From positions 105,467 to 169,466 of the forward strand of contig JACPES010000003.1 in the NCBI GenBank assembly GCA_016183365.1: a stretch of DNA of 64,000 nt, in the 5' to 3' direction. This document shows, in pieces, positions 1,250-39,066 of the stretch. The stretch comes from Candidatus Collierbacteria bacterium (GTDB lineage Bacteria; Patescibacteriota; Microgenomatia; UBA1400; JACPES01). The notes under the pieces are model-generated. The model saw nothing but the letters and a program-made list of their open reading frames with translations. It did no database searches and was not told the DNA's origin. Position numbers and translations under genes: made by a program. Numbering within the stretch: the first letter of the stretch is position 1; each line of letters opens with the position of its first letter.

Positions 1250-1595
1250 ACTTGGTTTGGGGTAGCGAAACGAGGCTCCGATATTATCGGAGAGGAAAGT
1301 CCAGACAGCAGGAAAACAGGGTGTCCCGCGCAAGCGGGATTCTCCCGCCGAATTTTATATTCAGGCGGGGGACAAGACAGGGCCACAGTGACGATTCGGG
1401 TAGCGCCGAGTGAAACGTCCAAGCGGAACCCGCGAAGCTTTACGCGGAGTGGGTCGGCAACCCTCCCCGCTGCAACTCAATAGCCGTTCGTTATACCAGT
1501 TTTCCGGAAGAACGGCGGTAGAGGCGCTAGATAAATCTCGTTATAAGCCCCGCTTAGCGTGGTAAAACAGAATCTGGCTTACAGTCCCAAACTAA
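1250..1595 (+). ncRNA. rnpB: RNase P RNA (bacterial type)
   Basis: Contains GAGGAAAGTCCAGAC (the P4 5' strand, consensus GGAAAGUCCGG) and ACAGAATCTGGCTTAC (the P4 3' strand, consensus ACAGAACCCGGCUUA), with compensatory changes CCAGA/TCTGG. Also has a GTGAAAC element and a GCAA-tetraloop hairpin CCCGCGCAAGCGGG as in E. coli M1 RNA. P1 helix closed by ttggtttgggg ... cccaaac. No ORF on the + strand. Confidence 0.75.
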
Positions 1596-29344: not shown

Positions 29345-30127
29345 TTAGCAATTTTTTGCCTTGCGCCAGCCGGCAGAGATGGCTTCTGATTCGGCGCAAA
29401 ACCAGCGTTCCCCGCGGGAGTCGTCTATCGCTGTTTTGTCGTATGAGCCACAGCCGGGAAGATGATAAATTTTTTCGCCGGAGGCAGAAATATTGCCTTT
29501 GATAAAACAATCGCCGGAAACTTCCGCATCCAGGCGGACAGGTGAAGAGGTCGGGTCCTGCGGAACAGGATCTCGCTCCGCGAGACAAGAACTCCATAAG
29601 CCCAGATTTTTTTCTCGGGCTTTGGCTTGGGCGACAACGAATAAATCCTGGAATTTCACATCCGGTGGGTAACTGTAAGAATGAGCAAAACCTTGTTTGA
29701 CTAATTCCAAGTTAACGAATACTGACGATTCTTGATCCGGATCGCCTAAATAAACATATCGCAATGATCGGCCGTATTTATCCTTGTCGGTTATATCTTT
29801 GGTTAGCCACACCGGTTTTCCTTCCACCAATTCTCTGTTTTTCTGCGCCGCCTCTTTGCCAAAACACTGGATCGGCTTTCTTGGATCCAAAGTCTCCGGC
29901 GTATCAATCCCGATATATCTAATTTTTTCTCCGTTTTCCAATTCTATGGTGTCGCCATCGATAACCCGTTTAACATTGATACCCTCTGATTTCGTTTCGA
30001 TAGTCAATTGCGGAGACTGCAAAATATTAGGTATAAGGGTTACCCGAGTTCGTTTTCCCAGCCAAAACCCGATCCCCAACAGAATAATTCCCAGCAGTAT
30101 TAAAATCGGCCAGCCTAGCTTAATCAT
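29345..30127 (-). CDS. Thermonuclease (SNase-like) family protein with a C-terminal Cys-containing domain
   Basis: N-terminal TM helix, VIDGDTIELENGEKIRYIGIDTPE, and a C-terminal GDCFIKGNIS ... WFCAESEAISAGWR domain. Confidence 0.7.
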   Translation of the reverse strand: MIKLGWPILILLGIILLGIGFWLGKRTRVTLIPNILQSPQLTIETKSEGINVKRVIDGDTIELENGEKIRYIGIDTPETLDPRKPIQCFGKEAAQKNRELVEGKPVWLTKDITDKDKYGRSLRYVYLGDPDQESSVFVNLELVKQGFAHSYSYPPDVKFQDLFVVAQAKAREKNLGLWSSCLAERDPVPQDPTSSPVRLDAEVSGDCFIKGNISASGEKIYHLPGCGSYDKTAIDDSRGERWFCAESEAISAGWRKAKNC

Positions 30128-30340: not shown

Positions 30341-31390
30341 TCACCCCCCTGCTAACAAATTTGTTCTCAACAATGTCCATCTGATTTTATCTGCTAAATT
30401 ATAAATAGTATAAATAGGCTGATTGAGGACTAAGTCCCAAGTGCCGACAAATTCAACCAATTTTCCGCCATAACCTTCTTTGAAGCGATGAAATCCGTAC
30501 CACTGGTCTTTGATATCGGGCTCCGGCCCCAAACTTCCCCAGAAGTCGAACATTTTGCAGCCGGATTTTTTGGCCATCAGCAATGCCCGCCAAGCCACCA
30601 GGTTGCTCGCCATCAATTCCCGGTTTTCACTTGAACTGGCGCCGTAAGGATAGTACCCGATGCCATTGAAGAAAAACAAAATCCAGGCGGATAAAACTGG
30701 TTGTTGGTTATTAGTTGTTAGTTGTTGGGGCAGTCTGGCGACCAATAAATGAGCGATGCCAGCGGATTTCATAGTTTTCCACATCAATTGGCGGTATTTC
30801 CGGCCATGGGCGTAAAAGCGTTGGCGTGAAGTTGTTTCTTCCGTCAATTTCTGAAACGCTTCAAACGCTTCATCCGAATTATCCTCCTTAACGACAATCC
30901 CCTTCTTTTCTGCCAGCCGAATGTTGTAACGGGTTTTGGGCCTCATTGTCGCCATCAGCTCGTCTTCAGATTTAGTCAAGTCAAGTTGAAAAGAAAATGG
31001 AGTAAACAAAGACTTCCCAGATTTCAATCCTAAATCTGATAAGGCCTGGCCTTGAAACTCCAAGGTCAAGCCTTTATGGACTTGAATGTTCGGTTCGAAT
31101 TTTACGAATATGCAATTATATTTTTTTACTTCTGATTTAACCGCATCAATCCATTCTTTATCCAACATTATTCCTCTGGGACAATATCCAATCGTCCACT
31201 TCGTGCGGGGAATTTGGTGAATTGAGATTTGTATCCCCTCAATTAATTTGCCACCTGTAAATTTCCCTAAGCGGATAACCTTTTGCCCCAACTTCTCCCG
31301 AAATTCCCCCCAGCTCCAGGATTGGAGAGGGTGGGCTGCTGTTTTGTCAAATTCTTGACGGAAGTCTGTGTCAACTGTTTTGATTTCCAT
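30341..31390 (-). CDS. FemAB-family peptidoglycan interpeptide-bridge aminoacyltransferase
   Basis: MRPKTRYNIRLAEKKG and a YYPYGASS region typical of FemAB/FemX. Carries a low-complexity insert QQLTTNNQQP. Confidence 0.65.
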   Translation of the reverse strand: MEIKTVDTDFRQEFDKTAAHPLQSWSWGEFREKLGQKVIRLGKFTGGKLIEGIQISIHQIPRTKWTIGYCPRGIMLDKEWIDAVKSEVKKYNCIFVKFEPNIQVHKGLTLEFQGQALSDLGLKSGKSLFTPFSFQLDLTKSEDELMATMRPKTRYNIRLAEKKGIVVKEDNSDEAFEAFQKLTEETTSRQRFYAHGRKYRQLMWKTMKSAGIAHLLVARLPQQLTTNNQQPVLSAWILFFFNGIGYYPYGASSSENRELMASNLVAWRALLMAKKSGCKMFDFWGSLGPEPDIKDQWYGFHRFKEGYGGKLVEFVGTWDLVLNQPIYTIYNLADKIRWTLLRTNLLAGG

Positions 31391-31480: not shown

Positions 31481-33343
31481 TTACACTCTCTCTAAATTCT
31501 CCTCCCCGATTTCAGAAATAAACCGGCTCGGGATCGATATTCCCCTGGATCCAAAATACATCCGGTTTCTGGCGTTAGTCAAATATAAATTATCCATGGC
31601 CCGGGTAATCCCGACGTACATCAGCCGTCTTTCTTCTTCGACGTCCTCTGATTTTAATAAGCTGCGACTATGAGGCAGCAAGCCTTCTTCCAATCCTGAC
31701 AAAAATACCGTCGGGAACTCCAAACCTTTGGCGGCATGAAGCGTCATCAAAGTGACGGCGTCGGTTTCGCCGCTGCGGCGGCGCATTTGTTGATCCTCAA
31801 GTAAAGCCACCTGCTCTAAAAATCTTCCTAAGTCAGGATAATTTTCCGCCACAGACAACAATTCTTTGACGTTTTCTATCCGACCGACGTCTTCCGGGTC
31901 TTCCGGATCCAGTTTATCTAAGTATTTAGTGGCGGCGATGACTCCTTCCAAAATCTCCCGGGTGGTTTTGATGATCAAGTTATCTATGAATTTACGGAAT
32001 TCCTGATAACGTTTTTGGCCGATTTTTAGAGCTCTAGTTAAAGACAGTTTATCTGCCGGATTATAAATTAATCTTAAATACGCCAGACAATCTTTTATTT
32101 CCGCCCGTTCGTAAAATCTGATCCCTCCGACCAAAATATACGGAATACCTGCTCCCAACAGGGCTTCTTCAAAAATCCGGGATTGGGCGTTGGTCCGGTA
32201 CAGGACCGAAAAATCTTTAAACTTAAATTGACCATTTGCCTTGGCCTTTTCATAACCGATTGAGGTGACTACGAATTTGGCTTCTTCCAGTTCTGAAAGA
32301 GCGGTATAAAGCTTTGGTTTGAAAACTGATTTTTTGTCGGTCCAGAGTTTTAAAATCGGATGCTGTTTATTGCGGGAAATCAGGCTGTGGGCGGCGTCTA
32401 ATATCGGTTGATTGGAACGGTAATTTCTCTCCAGCCTGATTTCTTTTAGATTCGGATAATCTTTTTTTAAATTCATTAAATTCCGAAAATTAGCCCCGCG
32501 GAAAGTGTAAATGGACTGCGACATATCTCCGACCACGGTGATATTATTGTATCTACCTGATAATTGCTTGGCCAATTTGTACTGGACGGAATTGGTATCC
32601 TGATATTCATCTATTAATAAATATTTAATTTGCTCCTGATAGCGGGATAATAGCTCCTGATCGCGGTTGAATAATCTAACGGTTTCAAACAGCAAATCGT
32701 CAAAATCCAGTCCGCCGGATTGGGTCAACCGCTTTTGATATTCGCTGTAAATTTTGGCGATGGTTTCCTGCCACTCGCCGCTACTTACCCCCATATATTC
32801 AACCGGAGTCACCATCTCATTTTTAGCCTCGGAGATTATGGCCGAAACCGAATTGGGGCGGAATTTTTTGGAATTTAATTTAGAATCGGAAATGATTTCT
32901 TTAATCAATTGGCGCCGATCCTCCTCGTCGTAAATCAGCCATTCCGGTTTTAATCCGGCGCGGGAGGCATGTTTTCTTAAAATCCAGGCGCACCAGGAGT
33001 GGAAGGTGCCGGAAAATGGTAGGGATAAGTTGTTAGTTGTTAGTTGTCCCGCGAAGCGGGATCCTGCTTCGCCAAGTACAGTCCTGTACCTGGCTTCGCA
33101 GGATTGATTGTTGAGCAGAGTCTCAACTCTGCGTTTCATTTCGCCAGCGGCCTTGTTGGTAAAGGTCAGCAGCAATATTTTATCCGGATCTACCAGTTTT
33201 TCGGACATTAACCAGGCTACCCGGTAAGTTAAGCAGCGGGTTTTGCCGCTGCCGGCTCCGGCTAAGATTAATAGCGGTCCGTCGCCGTGAGTGACGGCTA
33301 ACCGCTGTTCTGGATTTAGCTCTGATAAAAACTCTCGCGTCAT
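31481..33343 (-). CDS. uvrD: ATP-dependent DNA helicase UvrD/PcrA
   Basis: AGAGSGKTRCLT Walker A, TFTNKAAGEM, DEYQDTN and other SF1 motifs. Carries an in-frame insert of about 22 aa between motifs Ia and Ib. Confidence 0.9.
   Translation of the reverse strand: MTREFLSELNPEQRLAVTHGDGPLLILAGAGSGKTRCLTYRVAWLMSEKLVDPDKILLLTFTNKAAGEMKRRVETLLNNQSCEARYRTVLGEAGSRFAGQLTTNNLSLPFSGTFHSWCAWILRKHASRAGLKPEWLIYDEEDRRQLIKEIISDSKLNSKKFRPNSVSAIISEAKNEMVTPVEYMGVSSGEWQETIAKIYSEYQKRLTQSGGLDFDDLLFETVRLFNRDQELLSRYQEQIKYLLIDEYQDTNSVQYKLAKQLSGRYNNITVVGDMSQSIYTFRGANFRNLMNLKKDYPNLKEIRLERNYRSNQPILDAAHSLISRNKQHPILKLWTDKKSVFKPKLYTALSELEEAKFVVTSIGYEKAKANGQFKFKDFSVLYRTNAQSRIFEEALLGAGIPYILVGGIRFYERAEIKDCLAYLRLIYNPADKLSLTRALKIGQKRYQEFRKFIDNLIIKTTREILEGVIAATKYLDKLDPEDPEDVGRIENVKELLSVAENYPDLGRFLEQVALLEDQQMRRRSGETDAVTLMTLHAAKGLEFPTVFLSGLEEGLLPHSRSLLKSEDVEEERRLMYVGITRAMDNLYLTNARNRMYFGSRGISIPSRFISEIGEENLERV
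33027..33102. repeat. GC-rich double-hairpin element inserted in frame inside uvrD
   Basis: gttgtCCCGCgaaGCGGGatCCTGC ... GCAGGa. Same architecture as the copies at 37538-37590, 37626-37678 and 38047-38087. Confidence 0.6.
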
Positions 33344-36204: not shown

Positions 36205-37260
36205 ATGATTAAAATTGCAATTAACGGATTTGGTAGGATTGGAAGAACGGCGGTTAGGATTTTGGCGGAAAAATACGCCGATAAAATCGAGTTAGTGGCC
36301 ATAAATACTTCCGGTTCAATGGAAACGGAGGGTTGGGCGCATTTATTAAAATACGATACCGCTTACGGCCGGTTTAACCGTAGCGTGAAGTTTACGAAAC
36401 TTCACGCTACGGCCGAGGCAACGGATAACGATCCGGTTATCGGACAGTTGATGATCGAGGATTTGTCGGCGCCGATTTTATTGTTGGCCCAACGCGATCC
36501 GGCCAAATTGCCGTGGAAAGATTACGGAATTGATGTCGTGTTGGAATGTACCGGGATATTTGTAACTGCCGAAAAAGCCAAAGCTCATTTAAGTGCCGGC
36601 GCCAAAAGAGTGTTAATTTCCGCTCCACCCAAAGGCGGCGGAATCGGGACTTTTGTTTTGGGGGTCAATCAATACCAAAAAGGTGAAATTATTTCCAACG
36701 CCTCCTGTACTACCAATTGCGTGGCGCCGGTGGCGGCAATATTACACTCTAAATTCGGAGTCGAAAAAGCTTCGCTGTTAACGATTCATGCCTACACCGA
36801 CGACCAAAATTTGCAGGACAATTCCCATAAAGATTTGCGCCGGGCCCGGGCCGCGGCTCATAATCTGGTGCCGACGACTACCGGAGCGGCAATTTCCACC
36901 GCAGAAACAATTCCGGAATTAAAAGGCTTGTTTGACGGCCTGGCTATCCGAGCCCCGGTAATTTCCGGTTCGATTTGCGATATTACCGCGGTTTTAAAAA
37001 AAAACACCACGGTAGAAGAAGTTAATCTTGCTTTTATTGAAGCCAGCCAATCGCCGCGGTGGCAGGGAATTCTGGCAGTGACAGACGAACCCTTGGTCAG
37101 TTCCGATATCATCGGCCGGCCGGAATCGGCGATTGTGGACTTATCCTTAACCCAAGTTATCGGGGGGAATCTGGTCAAAGTTTTAGCTTGGTACGACAAT
37201 GAATACGGCTACTGCTACCGCCTGATCGAACAGACGATAGAGGTGGGTAAAAAGATTTAG
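36205..37260 (+). CDS. gap: Type I glyceraldehyde-3-phosphate dehydrogenase
   Basis: INGFGRIGR NAD-binding N-terminus, active-site ASCTTNCVAP, WYDNEYGY. Confidence 0.9.
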   Translation: MIKIAINGFGRIGRTAVRILAEKYADKIELVAINTSGSMETEGWAHLLKYDTAYGRFNRSVKFTKLHATAEATDNDPVIGQLMIEDLSAPILLLAQRDPAKLPWKDYGIDVVLECTGIFVTAEKAKAHLSAGAKRVLISAPPKGGGIGTFVLGVNQYQKGEIISNASCTTNCVAPVAAILHSKFGVEKASLLTIHAYTDDQNLQDNSHKDLRRARAAAHNLVPTTTGAAISTAETIPELKGLFDGLAIRAPVISGSICDITAVLKKNTTVEEVNLAFIEASQSPRWQGILAVTDEPLVSSDIIGRPESAIVDLSLTQVIGGNLVKVLAWYDNEYGYCYRLIEQTIEVGKKI

Positions 37261-37512
37261 TAGCACGAGTTCCTCACACACTGGCTCGTTGGCGGAATTT
37301 GCTCGTTTGCTGTCACCCCTCGTTGCTACTCGGGGCAAGCCCACTCGCTGTCGCTCGGGGTGGCCTCGGGTGGCAGCTAGCTCACTTCGCAAATTTGCCA
37401 ACTTCGCTAGTGCTCAAACGCGGAACTCATAAGCAGTAGAACGCTGATTTGCGCCAGTTTATATATCTGGCAATATTTGGAAATATTTGGTAAAGACAGA
37501 CTTAGCATTTTT

Positions 37513-37689
37513 GAGGCGCGTGAGGGAATCGAACCCTTGTATAGCGGTTTTGTCCTGCAGAGCAGGATCTAGCTTCGCTAGACAGACAGTTCCCTTCTTT
37601 GAGGCCTGGAAGGGAATCGAACCCTTGTATAGCGGTTTTGTCCTGCAGAGCAGGATCTAGCTTCGCTAGACAGACAGTTCCCTTCTTTG
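37513..37689 (-). repeat. Two tandem 88-bp direct repeats, each a double-hairpin element plus a copy of the tRNA-Cys 3' half (pseudo-tRNA units)
   Basis: 37513-37600 and 37601-37688 are near-identical. Each ends with CAAGGGTTCGATTCCCTTCCAGGCC, identical to the T-arm and acceptor 3' strand of the adjacent tRNA-Cys, but has no D-arm or 5' acceptor strand. Confidence 0.6.
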
Positions 37690-37761
37690 AGGCCTGGAAG
37701 GGAATCGAACCCTTGTATAGCGGTTTTGCAGACCGCCGCGTTACCACTTCGCCACCAGGCC
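37690..37761 (-). tRNA. tRNA-Cys (anticodon GCA)
   Basis: Minus-strand read GGCCTGG..GGCG..GCGGT-CTGCAAA-ACCGC..AAGGG-TTCGATT-CCCTT-CCAGGCC-T folds as a cloverleaf. Anticodon loop CTGCAAA carries GCA. No encoded CCA. Confidence 0.7.
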
Positions 37762-38013
37762 CTATTTCAAACTTTCTTTAATTTGCTTCATCAAATTGTT
37801 CTTCACCGCATGCATTTTCAGTTGTACTTCTCTTTTCGTCGCATCGGGCTTTTCTTTATATGCCTCATAATATACCAATATCCAAGGTCGATAAGACTTT
37901 GTCGATTTAACTTTTCCAGAATTATGTCTGAAAAACCGATTTTTTAAATCATCGGTGCAACCAACATAAAGCCTATGATCAACAGCACTTTTTAACAGAT
38001 ACACGTAATGCAT
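37762..38013 (-). CDS. GIY-YIG nuclease superfamily protein (YhbQ/YazA UPF0213-like, 83 aa)
   Basis: VYLLKS ... RLYVGCTDDLKNRFFRHNSG ... RPWILVY ... KREVQLK. Its stop abuts the 5' end of tRNA-Cys. Confidence 0.65.
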   Translation of the reverse strand: MHYVYLLKSAVDHRLYVGCTDDLKNRFFRHNSGKVKSTKSYRPWILVYYEAYKEKPDATKREVQLKMHAVKNNLMKQIKESLK

Positions 38014-38046
38014 TTATTATTTTAAGGCTGACTTCTCATAAAGAAG

Positions 38047-38115
38047 TTTTGTCCTGCAGGGCAGGATCCCGCTCCGCGGGACAGACCGCCACATTACCCT
38101 GGCTTTGCCAGACCA
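38047..38115 (-). repeat. Double-hairpin element copy fused to a tRNA-Cys-like 5' half, upstream of the GIY-YIG gene
   Basis: Minus-strand read GGTCTGGCAAAGCCAGGGTAATGTGGCGGTCTG. This resembles an acceptor strand, D-arm and anticodon stem 5' strand. It is followed by TCCCGCggaGCGGGATCCTGCcctGCAGGAcaaaac. Confidence 0.5.
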
Positions 38116-38169
38116 TTTACCTTTAGACTATTCTACCAAAGCTGATATACTTAATTCCTAAAGCTTAAG

Positions 38170-39066
38170 ATGAGAAGATTACCGCTATTACTTTTAGTTT
38201 CTTGGTTGTTATCCGGTTGCGCCATTCCGTTTATCGGCGCCGGAAAAGCCGGCTTGAAAGCCGTAACTTCTGTCCCAGCCACGGTAATTCTGGACGGCAA
38301 GCAGGAAGGGACTACACCGTTTGAAAAAACCGATCTGAAATCAAAAACTTACCGTTTGCAGCTTATTCCCCAATCCGGCCAACCGTGGGAAACTACTCTG
38401 ACGCTTCACGATGATTTATTGGCAGTAGTCGAACGGACAACCGGCGATAACGATCAGGAGTCAGAGGGTTATATTATGGAACTGGAAAAAATTTCCGATA
38501 AAACTCAGTCTCAATTAGCGGTGGTGACGATTCCCGATCCGGCCGCCGTCCGGATCGACGGTCAGCCCAAAGGTTTTGCCCCGATTACCATCCCGCTTGC
38601 CACCGACGGGAATCATGAAGTAATAGTTTCTTCGGCCGGATATAACGATAAAAAAGTCCCGTTGGCGGTTCCAAAGGGACATAAATTGACTTTAACAGTC
38701 CAATTATCCCGGACCAAAATTGTGTCTCCTTCTCCGGGAACAACCGAATCGGCTGCGCCGGACGAAACTTCAATTACGCCAACCCCCACTCCGACCGCAG
38801 CTAAGGGTCAAACTAAGGTAATTCCAACTCCAAAGCCGACTCAGGCCGCCCCGACTAAACCCTATGTAGAAATTTTGGATACTCCTACCGGTTGGTTGAG
38901 GGTTCGCGGCGAGCCCAACTCTACTAGCGGCAAGGAGTTGACCAAGATTTACCCCAAAGAAACTTATAAATTCCTGGAATCGACAGATAACGGTTGGTAT
39001 AAGATTAAACTTCCTGACGGACAAGAAGGCTGGATTTCCGGCAAATACGCCAAACTATTCCGTTAA
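38170..39066 (+). CDS. Lipoprotein with PEGA domains, a Pro/Thr-rich linker and a C-terminal SH3b domain
   Basis: Lipobox LLSGC. Two PEGA-like repeats. TPTPTPT linker. SH3b region GWLRVRGEPN ... GWYKIKLPDGQEGWISGKY. Confidence 0.6.
   Translation: MRRLPLLLLVSWLLSGCAIPFIGAGKAGLKAVTSVPATVILDGKQEGTTPFEKTDLKSKTYRLQLIPQSGQPWETTLTLHDDLLAVVERTTGDNDQESEGYIMELEKISDKTQSQLAVVTIPDPAAVRIDGQPKGFAPITIPLATDGNHEVIVSSAGYNDKKVPLAVPKGHKLTLTVQLSRTKIVSPSPGTTESAAPDETSITPTPTPTAAKGQTKVIPTPKPTQAAPTKPYVEILDTPTGWLRVRGEPNSTSGKELTKIYPKETYKFLESTDNGWYKIKLPDGQEGWISGKYAKLFR

Follow-up and report, generated by a model that had tools for sequence, protein, structure and literature searches.

The tRNA-Cys locus described here belongs to a Candidatus Collierbacteria bacterium and lies in a 64,000-nt stretch of contig JACPES010000003.1, which we call the window; all coordinates given below are positions in this window. 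Read along the minus strand, from 38138 to 37513, the locus comprises an extended -10-like box, an orphan and diverged 5' half of a tRNA-Cys gene, a 30-nt double-hairpin element (DHE), a gene for an 83-aa GIY-YIG nuclease, an intact tRNA-Cys, and two tandem 88-bp units in which a DHE is joined to a tRNA-Cys 3' half. Every element of this locus that had been listed in an earlier, sequence-only reading of the same DNA (the original prediction) was found again in its place on the minus strand, by inspection of the sequence and with ARAGORN, Rfam, Pfam and Tandem Repeats Finder. What that reading missed is that the DHE constitutes a separate element, and that the arrangement is a widespread family: the Collierbacteria locus is one copy of a module that is widespread in the Candidate Phyla Radiation (CPR, or Patescibacteria).

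The extended -10-like box (TGgTAGAAT, 38130-38138) was read from the sequence by eye and is separated by 15 nt from the downstream orphan 5' half (38082-38114, tRNA positions 1-33/34), which was recovered both as repeat family D11 (17 nt, 88%) and by our own alignment count. The orphan is 33 nt long and colinear with tRNA-Cys positions 1-33, with 22 of 33 nucleotides identical to the intact tRNA by that count; over its last 17 nt, which end ...ggcggtctg at G34, there are 15 matches. The description of this segment as a tRNA-Cys 5' half holds for the acceptor strand and for the part from the D-loop to position 34, which are the only recognisable tRNA in it, whereas the D-arm part has diverged and now forms a separate small hairpin (ctggc-aaa-gccag). 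DHE copy 1 (38052-38081; TCCCGC-GGA-GCGGGA followed by TCCTGC-CCT-GCAGGA), located by repeat and motif scans, occupies 30 nt between G34 and C35 of the orphan, upstream of the nuclease open reading frame (ORF), and the caaaac that comes after it (38051-38046) resumes the anticodon loop from C35.

The nuclease gene (37762-38013) encodes a minimal domain of the Slx1/UPF0213 type (Pfam PF01541, E=1.2e-15), and its stop codon abuts position 1 of the intact tRNA-Cys(GCA) (37689-37761; ARAGORN, and Rfam RF00005 at 69 bits). Beyond this tRNA, tandem-repeat and motif scans delimit 88-bp unit 1 (37601-37688) and unit 2 (37513-37600), for which Tandem Repeats Finder reports a period of 88 with 2.3 copies and 100% matches over 37523-37728. 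Unit 1 consists of an 18-nt spacer (37688-37671, ending ctgtctg), DHE copy 2 (37670-37641; TCTAGC-GAA-GCTAGA followed by TCCTGC-TCT-GCAGGA) and a 40-nt tRNA-Cys 3' half (37640-37601), which runs from C35 to the 3' end and is identical to the intact tRNA. The spacer of unit 1 recurs in unit 2, where DHE copy 3 occupies 37582-37553 and the 3' half (37552-37513) departs from the intact tRNA over its last 10 nt (cacgcgcctc, where the intact tRNA has ttccaggcctc). Its ending, acgcgcc, matches the tRNA-Cys acceptor end of three relatives (L015, L021 and L026; relatives' loci, from genomes or metagenomes, are labelled L003 to L174) and not the ccaggcc of the present tRNA. The 3' end of unit 2 therefore looks like a relic of an older tRNA-Cys allele, which the present tRNA, or its ends, would have replaced. 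A strain variant, L003 (Logan SRR12113390), is distinguished in the last 20 nt, where its intact tRNA-Cys runs into caaaaccgccatg and not into caaaaccgctatac; the 3' half is therefore variable in the population, a pattern in keeping with exchange between 3'-half copies.

The 88-bp units do not score as tRNAs, in line with the original prediction, which had read them as fragments. The Rfam tRNA model, applied at its gathering threshold and in permissive modes, scores only 37690-37761, the intact tRNA, and the one further candidate from ARAGORN run with introns is trivial, linking the 5' half of the intact tRNA to the final 3' half; neither the units nor the outer halves of the window were retained as real tRNAs. 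That the two units are an artefact of assembling a repeat-rich region is scarcely credible. The region is certainly hard to assemble, all seven short-read contigs with an identical nuclease gene ending inside the tRNA, as expected for a repeat. Assemblers, however, usually collapse tandem repeats and do not create them, tandem units of a DHE and a 3' half are present in independent assemblies from other lineages (L015, L018, L026, L101, L118 and L162), and the last unit of the window has a distinct, biologically sensible 3' end.

Conservation of the module in relatives

The order of elements seen in the window recurs in L008, L010-12, L013 and L014, whose nucleases are 64-70% identical to the Collierbacteria protein, and it stands there again beside a gene for a PEGA/SH3 protein. 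These loci read, in turn, as a tRNA-Cys 5' half ending gtctg, a DHE, caaaac, the ORF from ATG to stop, the intact tRNA-Cys, a spacer, and then gtctg, a DHE, caaaac and a 3' half. Taken more widely, the architecture is shared by relatives with nuclease identities of 55-70%, several of which have it at the same chromosomal position. The PEGA/SH3 neighbour is kept in eight lineages, Woesebacteria among them, at protein identities of 31-47%, and synteny with a neighbour so diverged indicates that the module is old and has been vertically inherited at that site.

A species-level scan, with one genome per species and a 14-sequence nuclease alignment, extended the family to 80 loci in many CPR classes and a few other phyla. 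In 19 of the 20 best loci, and in about 36 of 84 overall, a tRNA on the same strand starts between -17 and +150 nt from the nuclease stop codon, mostly at 0-15. The partner is mostly tRNA-Cys(GCA), with tRNA-Ile(GAT), tRNA-Leu and tRNA-Ser at other loci and tRNA-His at one. The ATG is usually preceded by an orphan 5' fragment of that same tRNA, which a hairpin element splits and which resumes for 5-15 nt before the ORF. After the intact tRNA, partial 3' copies interrupted by hairpins are frequent, often in tandem (L015, L018, L026, L029 and L087). A neighbour-joining tree shows that the tRNA partner follows the nuclease clade: there is a Cys clade, with Ile and Leu clades nested in it, and there are separate Ser clades among the more distant nucleases. 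One genome holds two nuclease paralogues, at tRNA-Leu(CAA) and at tRNA-Leu(TAA). Three metagenome loci (L121, L137 and L133) have two GIY-YIG genes in tandem or close together, each beside tRNA genes (Cys, Phe, Gly).

The reciprocal search, carried out in metagenomes with the pattern GTCTG-TCNNGCNNNGCNNGA-TCNNGCNNNGCNNGA-CAAAAC, returned at least 120 stretches. A GIY-YIG gene lies no more than 700 nt from the DHE pattern in 58 of the 80 loci fetched, and 76 of 92 DHE sites are placed either 0-49 nt upstream of a GIY-YIG ATG or shortly downstream of an intact tRNA-Cys. In the literature that we searched, on GIY-YIG enzymes with tRNA and CPR, YhbQ and UPF0213, we found neither a description of this module nor any link between UPF0213 and tRNA genes or hairpin repeats.

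These comparisons bear directly on the first interpretation offered in the original prediction, which saw in the locus the scars of serial integration and excision by integrase-type elements at a tRNA-Cys attachment site. The 3' fragments do begin at the anticodon loop, and in L008, L013, L021 and L050 also at the T-loop; Williams, in 2002, is said to have described just these two loops as the classical crossover sublocations of tRNA-targeting integrases. No integrase was found, however, in the neighbourhood of the locus, and a combined ORF and Pfam scan of the window locus listed no tyrosine or serine recombinase among its neighbours. Moreover, duplicated fragments come from both the 5' and the 3' part of the tRNA, the junctions hold a conserved and structured 30-nt element instead of diverse element ends, and the associated gene is of the GIY-YIG type. 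The arrangement is, furthermore, kept at the same site across deep divergence, which argues against a hotspot of integration scars. We regard this interpretation as largely refuted and its residual probability as very small.

The comparison with related genomes, which the original prediction had put forward as a check, tells in part against that prediction by its own terms, and gave a mixed answer on mobility. The same arrangement is indeed found at the same chromosomal place (nuclease identity 65-70%, with the neighbour identities given above), and the PEGA/SH3 site is fixed in the eight lineages; yet the partner tRNA switches among Cys, Ile, Leu and Ser, copies occur in tandem, and paralogues stand at two tRNA-Leu genes of one genome. 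Compared with the adjacent intact tRNA, orphan 5' halves (58-100% identical) and downstream 3' halves span identities from about 60% to 100%, with medians near 78%, and the coexistence of such decayed relics with 100%-identical 88-bp units suggests a continuing local turnover.

The genes neighbouring the locus in the window are GAPDH, the divergent PEGA/SH3 protein, RecA, RecX and RNase Y. A GC-rich block (37300-37420) separates the GAPDH stop codon from the tRNA array and contains two related 20-nt repeats (CCCCTCGTTGCTACTCGGGG and CCACTCGCTGTCGCTCGGGG) together with a 19-nt palindrome; no terminator-like site was found in this block.

The double-hairpin element

The DHE is defined by the consensus TCnnGC-NNN-GCnnGA, which occurs twice in its 30 nt. 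A 17-nt core pattern has five matches in the window, where 0.03 are expected, and a strict hairpin motif has 18 strand-wise matches (9 places), compared with 0.94 in shuffled sequence; with counts so far above expectation, chance is excluded as an explanation of the repeated hairpins. Around the module, GC-clamped hairpins have a density of 1.20 per kb, compared with 0.066 per kb elsewhere in the same loci, an 18-fold enrichment. The type of hairpin varies with the nuclease clade: TCnnGC hairpins accompany the Cys, Ile and Leu clades, and the Ser clades have TCnGCC-NNN-GGCnGA or longer double hairpins.

Insertion of the element is precise. A seed-chaining scan of tRNA-derived stretches, which made no use of hairpin information, showed that the insertions splitting these tRNA sequences are mostly exactly 30 nt long and consist of two hairpins, with no target bases duplicated or lost. 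The same scan placed them at tRNA positions ~12, 17-25, 33-36 and 55, that is, in or beside the D, anticodon and T loops. Three insertions of 29-30 nt interrupt a single orphan 5' half in L034, at positions 12, 24 and 35.

The stems of the DHE are maintained while their sequences change. The pattern used in the metagenome search left stem positions 3-4 and their partners unconstrained, so that the resulting copies provide a valid test of pairing: all four free stem positions pair in 55 of 59 distinct copies, against a chance of about 0.02 per copy. Double-sided changes number 111 in the 39 distinct genome copies, although this set had been selected for pairing, which makes the count circular and leaves it a descriptive value only. 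Hairpin sequences differ among lineages yet stay paired, as in L008, where the element reads TCCGGC-AAA-GCCGGA followed by TGTGGC-TCT-GCCACA. Judged by these sequence comparisons, the DHE is under selection for pairing.

There is also a relationship between the two hairpins of one element. Among 95 distinct double hairpins, drawn from the window and loci L008-L174, loop 2 is the exact reverse complement of loop 1 in 24 copies, with 1.5 expected, and is complementary to it at two or more of the three positions in 72, with about 15 expected; the variable stem positions, by comparison, are identical between the two hairpins in only 2 of the 95. We had considered a rule by which a purine loop is followed by a pyrimidine loop, which is true for most copies of the genome set but fails in the metagenome set and was given up, whereas loop complementarity is general. 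The DHE is a 30-nt quasi-palindrome centred on GATC, and its reverse complement is again a double hairpin of the same kind, a symmetry that points to recognition or copying at the level of DNA.

This symmetry is one of several observations that bear on a quite different explanation, in which the system operates on RNA: the outer halves would form a split or intron-containing tRNA-Cys, with the DHEs bounding an 'intron' that holds the nuclease and the inner tRNA, or else tRNA-like ends would stabilise the mRNA. A related suggestion, of a degenerate tRNA-intron-like arrangement with a homing-type nuclease, was made in the original prediction, and it comes nearer than integration scars insofar as a GIY-YIG gene is nested in a tRNA gene. 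Consistent with an RNA-level system, ARAGORN links the outer halves of L008 and of L010 over 393-423 nt, and in L010 the upstream ggcctag pairs with the downstream ctaggcc, the inner tRNA using gacctgg/ccaggtc; position 34/35 is the break point both upstream and downstream in the window and in L008, L010 and L015; and the insertions prefer tRNA loops. Group I introns at position 35/36 are, in addition, common in tRNA genes of Patescibacteria (PMC13011429).

The remaining evidence is nonetheless difficult to reconcile with an intron or a split tRNA, and we consider an RNA-level system quite improbable. A search of 37250-38200 at E values up to 10 gave no match to Intron_gpI or to any other ribozyme, and the nuclease has no DNA-binding domain of the homing type. 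An intact tRNA of matching isotype is never missing, the tRNA is broken at different positions upstream and downstream in L019, L022, L029 and L087, and many fragments are truncated. The window's own outer halves do not match each other (ggtctgg and the relic end acgcgcc). Among orphans, identity has fallen to 58-80%, and the symmetry of the DHE points to DNA. Most of the long-intron joins that ARAGORN proposes in metagenome loci are trivial, linking the orphan 5' half to the 3' half of the intact tRNA itself.

Hairpins of the DHE type also occur in the window away from the tRNA-Cys locus. A dispersed DHE copy found by the motif scan (29556-29585, minus strand; TCTCGC-GGA-GCGAGA followed by TCCTGT-TCC-GCAGGA) lies in frame in a nuclease-like ORF (29345-30127), in the linker after its SNase domain, where it encodes CLAERDPVPQD (SSCLAERDPVPQDP); in this it resembles the in-frame palindromic insertions of Rickettsia. 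A PcrA/UvrD-like helicase ORF (31481-33343, minus strand) has some 25 extra residues before its (G/S)TFHS motif (query 80-111 against PcrA 83-89), and the DNA encoding them (33028-33100, plus-strand coordinates) contains a DHE-type hairpin, TCCCGC-GAA-GCGGGA, and then a second hairpin with a nested loop insertion. Adjoining this hairpin insertion is an (AGTTGTT)n heptamer repeat, which is found in frame in two neighbouring genes (30713-30726 and 33028-33048; 3 matches against 0 expected) and encodes QLTTNNQQ in a FemAB-like ORF and QLTTNN in the helicase. One further candidate, a hairpin at 1324-1339, was rejected as a DHE copy, being a native helix of an RNase P RNA gene of bacterial class A (1257-1594, plus strand); this gene scores 90.1 bits against an Rfam gathering score of 100 and was missed by the default scan.

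The nuclease, its expression and a proposed mechanism

The nuclease is a member of the GIY-YIG superfamily, with a match to PF01541 of 58 bits against a cut-off of 22.6, and within it belongs to the UPF0213/Slx1-like subfamily. The catalytic residues are conserved, with Y5, Y16, G18, R26, H30 and E62 invariant across 32 homologues. The best sequence matches in the PDB are to the UPF0213 proteins BH0048 and EF2693 (1ZG2, E=3.2e-5; 1YWL, E=9.1e-5). An AlphaFold2 model (pLDDT 93.6) has the order beta-beta-alpha-alpha-beta-alpha, and Foldseek ranks 1ZG2 first and Slx1 at positions 2-11 (TM-score 0.65-0.70, 32-34% identity), with I-TevI and UvrC farther away. At 83 aa the protein is a catalytic domain only, and with no separate DNA-binding domain it is not a classical homing endonuclease. 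Nor does it resemble a Seg-like enzyme in its TIGR01453 score, which at 17.9 bits is below the cut-off of 56. A phage origin was also rejected, no relatives of the nuclease being found in IMG/VR and no matching family in PHROG.

The ORF appears, from the layout of the locus, to use the tRNA promoter. Boxes matching the -10 consensus at five of six positions stand upstream of the orphan in 22 of 39 metagenome-relative loci, compared with 25% of random windows, and extended -10 boxes in 8 of 39, compared with 2.3%. A simple sigma-70 scan listed no minus-strand promoter upstream of the orphan, nor did it list the window's own box. This box is presumed to be the original promoter of tRNA-Cys, from which orphan, nuclease gene and tRNA would now be transcribed. 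RNase P cleaves transcripts at the 5' end of the tRNA, and because the tRNA starts at or a few bases from the stop codon, such processing would define the 3' end of the mRNA.

On balance, and with due reserve, we favour the view that the locus houses a resident nuclease of the Slx1/UPF0213 type with its cognate DHE, lodged between a tRNA promoter and a regenerated tRNA, and that the partial tRNA copies arise as by-products of break repair. The data establish the anatomy of the locus and its conservation, the joint occurrence of nuclease, tRNA and DHE, the precision of insertion, the selection on stem pairing, and the fold with its catalytic residues; the mechanism built on these is a proposal. 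Nuclease mRNA and tRNA would be transcribed together from the tRNA promoter, and the mRNA would be freed by the RNase P cut at the tRNA 5' end. The enzyme, acting as a structure-specific nuclease, may nick the DHE or the tRNA gene where their DNA folds into a hairpin, cruciform or cloverleaf. Repair of the break, whether by gene conversion, by template switching or by unequal crossing-over between copies of the tRNA, could then spread the DHE locally and would go on producing partial copies of the tRNA as well as tandem units like the 88-bp repeats. We infer that the partial copies are such by-products, and neither integrase scars nor intron-containing tRNAs. Finally, a gene placed between an essential, single-copy tRNA and its promoter should be hard to delete, which would explain its long vertical persistence.

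Several points count against a resident nuclease acting on its own DHEs. The substrate assigned to the enzyme is a guess from the similarity of its modelled fold to known structures, and support for the -10 box is limited to matches to the consensus. We know of no mechanism by which a GIY-YIG enzyme would achieve a precise, duplication-free insertion of 30 nt, nor of one that would produce complementary loops. Close relatives showed no presence/absence polymorphism, the search for phage-borne relatives found none, and long vertical conservation at a single site is as much to be expected of a domesticated host gene as of a selfish one. Furthermore, 22 of the 80 metagenome loci carry a DHE and tRNA fragments without a nearby GIY-YIG gene, and many distant GIY-YIG homologues have neither tRNA nor hairpins nearby.

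The last two of these points also favour an alternative in which the nuclease is a domesticated housekeeping enzyme that shares the tRNA-Cys operon, and the DHEs are independent repeats, similar to repetitive extragenic palindromic (REP) sequences or Rickettsia palindromic elements (RPEs), that sit where insertion is tolerated and have no functional link to the gene. Vertical inheritance beside PEGA/SH3 over deep divergence is in keeping with such an arrangement, as are the in-frame DHE of the SNase-like gene and the hairpin-bearing insertion of the PcrA-like gene. Against it stand the 18-fold hairpin enrichment beside the nuclease gene and the joint change of hairpin type and nuclease clade. 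The architecture of orphan, DHE, ORF and tRNA has, in addition, arisen at Cys, Ile, Leu and Ser tRNA genes, and there are fresh, 100%-identical duplications at the locus. We therefore think it unlikely that nuclease and hairpins are unconnected.

A more far-reaching proposal, which we offer tentatively and hold to be possible but doubtful, is that the DHE represents a new kind of mobile DNA, one that is mobilised by a structure-specific, Slx1-like GIY-YIG enzyme with no transposase, integrase or reverse transcriptase, and that inserts precisely, with no target duplication, into the loops of tRNA genes. Such insertion would take place perhaps while the non-template strand of the transcribed gene folds as a cloverleaf, and the nuclease gene would owe its survival to a place between an essential tRNA and the promoter of that tRNA. 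In a bolder variant of the same proposal, the hairpins would be removed at the RNA level, making the arrangement a protein-dependent bacterial tRNA intron or a split tRNA.

Related systems and significance

The closest known analogue of the module is the phage GIY-YIG enzyme SegB, which cuts inside tRNA genes and drives the tandem amplification of tRNA-containing segments, and whose association with tRNA is statistically widespread in phages (PMC13096335). The two systems have in common a GIY-YIG gene adjoining tRNA genes and the presence of tandem tRNA units. They differ in that SegB is phage-borne and has a DNA-binding part, whereas the CPR protein is a bare 83-aa domain with no viral relatives and no PHROG match. 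The CPR gene is also chromosomal, vertically stable and nested in a tRNA transcription unit, and its module includes a conserved DHE, none having been reported for SegB loci.

In both sequence and structure, the nuclease is most like UPF0213 (YhbQ/YazA; 1ZG2, 1YWL) and eukaryotic Slx1 (6SEI, 6SEH), the latter described in the titles of its PDB entries as a structure-specific nuclease that acts on branched DNA. It differs from Slx1 in having no RING/zinc-finger domain and no Slx4 partner. As for its relation to the surrounding hairpins, a partial analogue is the REP/RAYT (REPIN) system.

In proteobacteria, REP/RAYT systems consist of a single-copy, vertically inherited gene of nuclease type, flanked by cognate palindromic repeats that are also dispersed in the genome. 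The likeness is functional only and lies in a gene flanked by cognate short palindromes: RAYT is a Y1 (HUH) transposase and REPs are intergenic, whereas the CPR gene is of the GIY-YIG type and is embedded in a tRNA unit, and its repeats are concentrated in tRNA-derived sequence. A different parallel is offered by the hybrid atp6 gene of Allomyces, where a mobile GIY-YIG ORF enters a gene, brings or regenerates the part that it disrupts, and leaves an orphan fragment. There the target is a mitochondrial protein gene whose 3' end is replaced; the CPR target is a tRNA gene, and it is the 5' part that is duplicated.

Short hairpin insertions are known from other genomes as well. Rickettsia palindromic elements are of this type and are found in frame in protein genes. 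The mitochondrial double-hairpin elements of Allomyces and the repetitive hairpin-forming elements (RHEs) of sponge are, like the CPR element, short GC-rich double hairpins, present in rRNA genes, in intergenic regions and in frame in protein genes; they show compensatory stem changes and are reported to remain unremoved from transcripts (PMC2800124). All of these differ from the CPR element in belonging to organelles or to Rickettsia, and they are not known to have a consistently linked, dedicated nuclease or a focus on tRNA genes. Group I introns in the anticodon loops (35/36) of Patescibacteria tRNA genes, some of them with homing endonuclease genes, occur in the same phylum and interrupt the tRNA at or near anticodon positions 34-36 (PMC13011429). 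The CPR module differs from these in having no ribozyme core, in having an intact tRNA copy, and in insertions that extend to the D and T regions. Archaeal split tRNAs of the bulge-helix-bulge type are probably distinct as well: the organism here is bacterial (RecA, RNase Y) and the two hairpins are direct repeats and not a complementary leader and trailer.

CPR genomes are tiny and shed genes readily; the module nonetheless persists in essential tRNA units across many classes. In practice, short-read assemblies break at its tRNA fragments and repeats, which can also lead to errors when tRNA genes of CPR genomes are annotated. If the link between nuclease and hairpins is functional, the uncharacterised UPF0213/YhbQ family would gain its first testable substrate, in the form of 15-nt GC-clamped hairpins and tRNA-gene DNA, and the nuclease-driven amplification known from phage SegB and its tRNA genes would have a cellular counterpart. 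The module would also provide a simple system in which to study the origin of precise palindromic insertions, including those that are carried in frame within protein genes.

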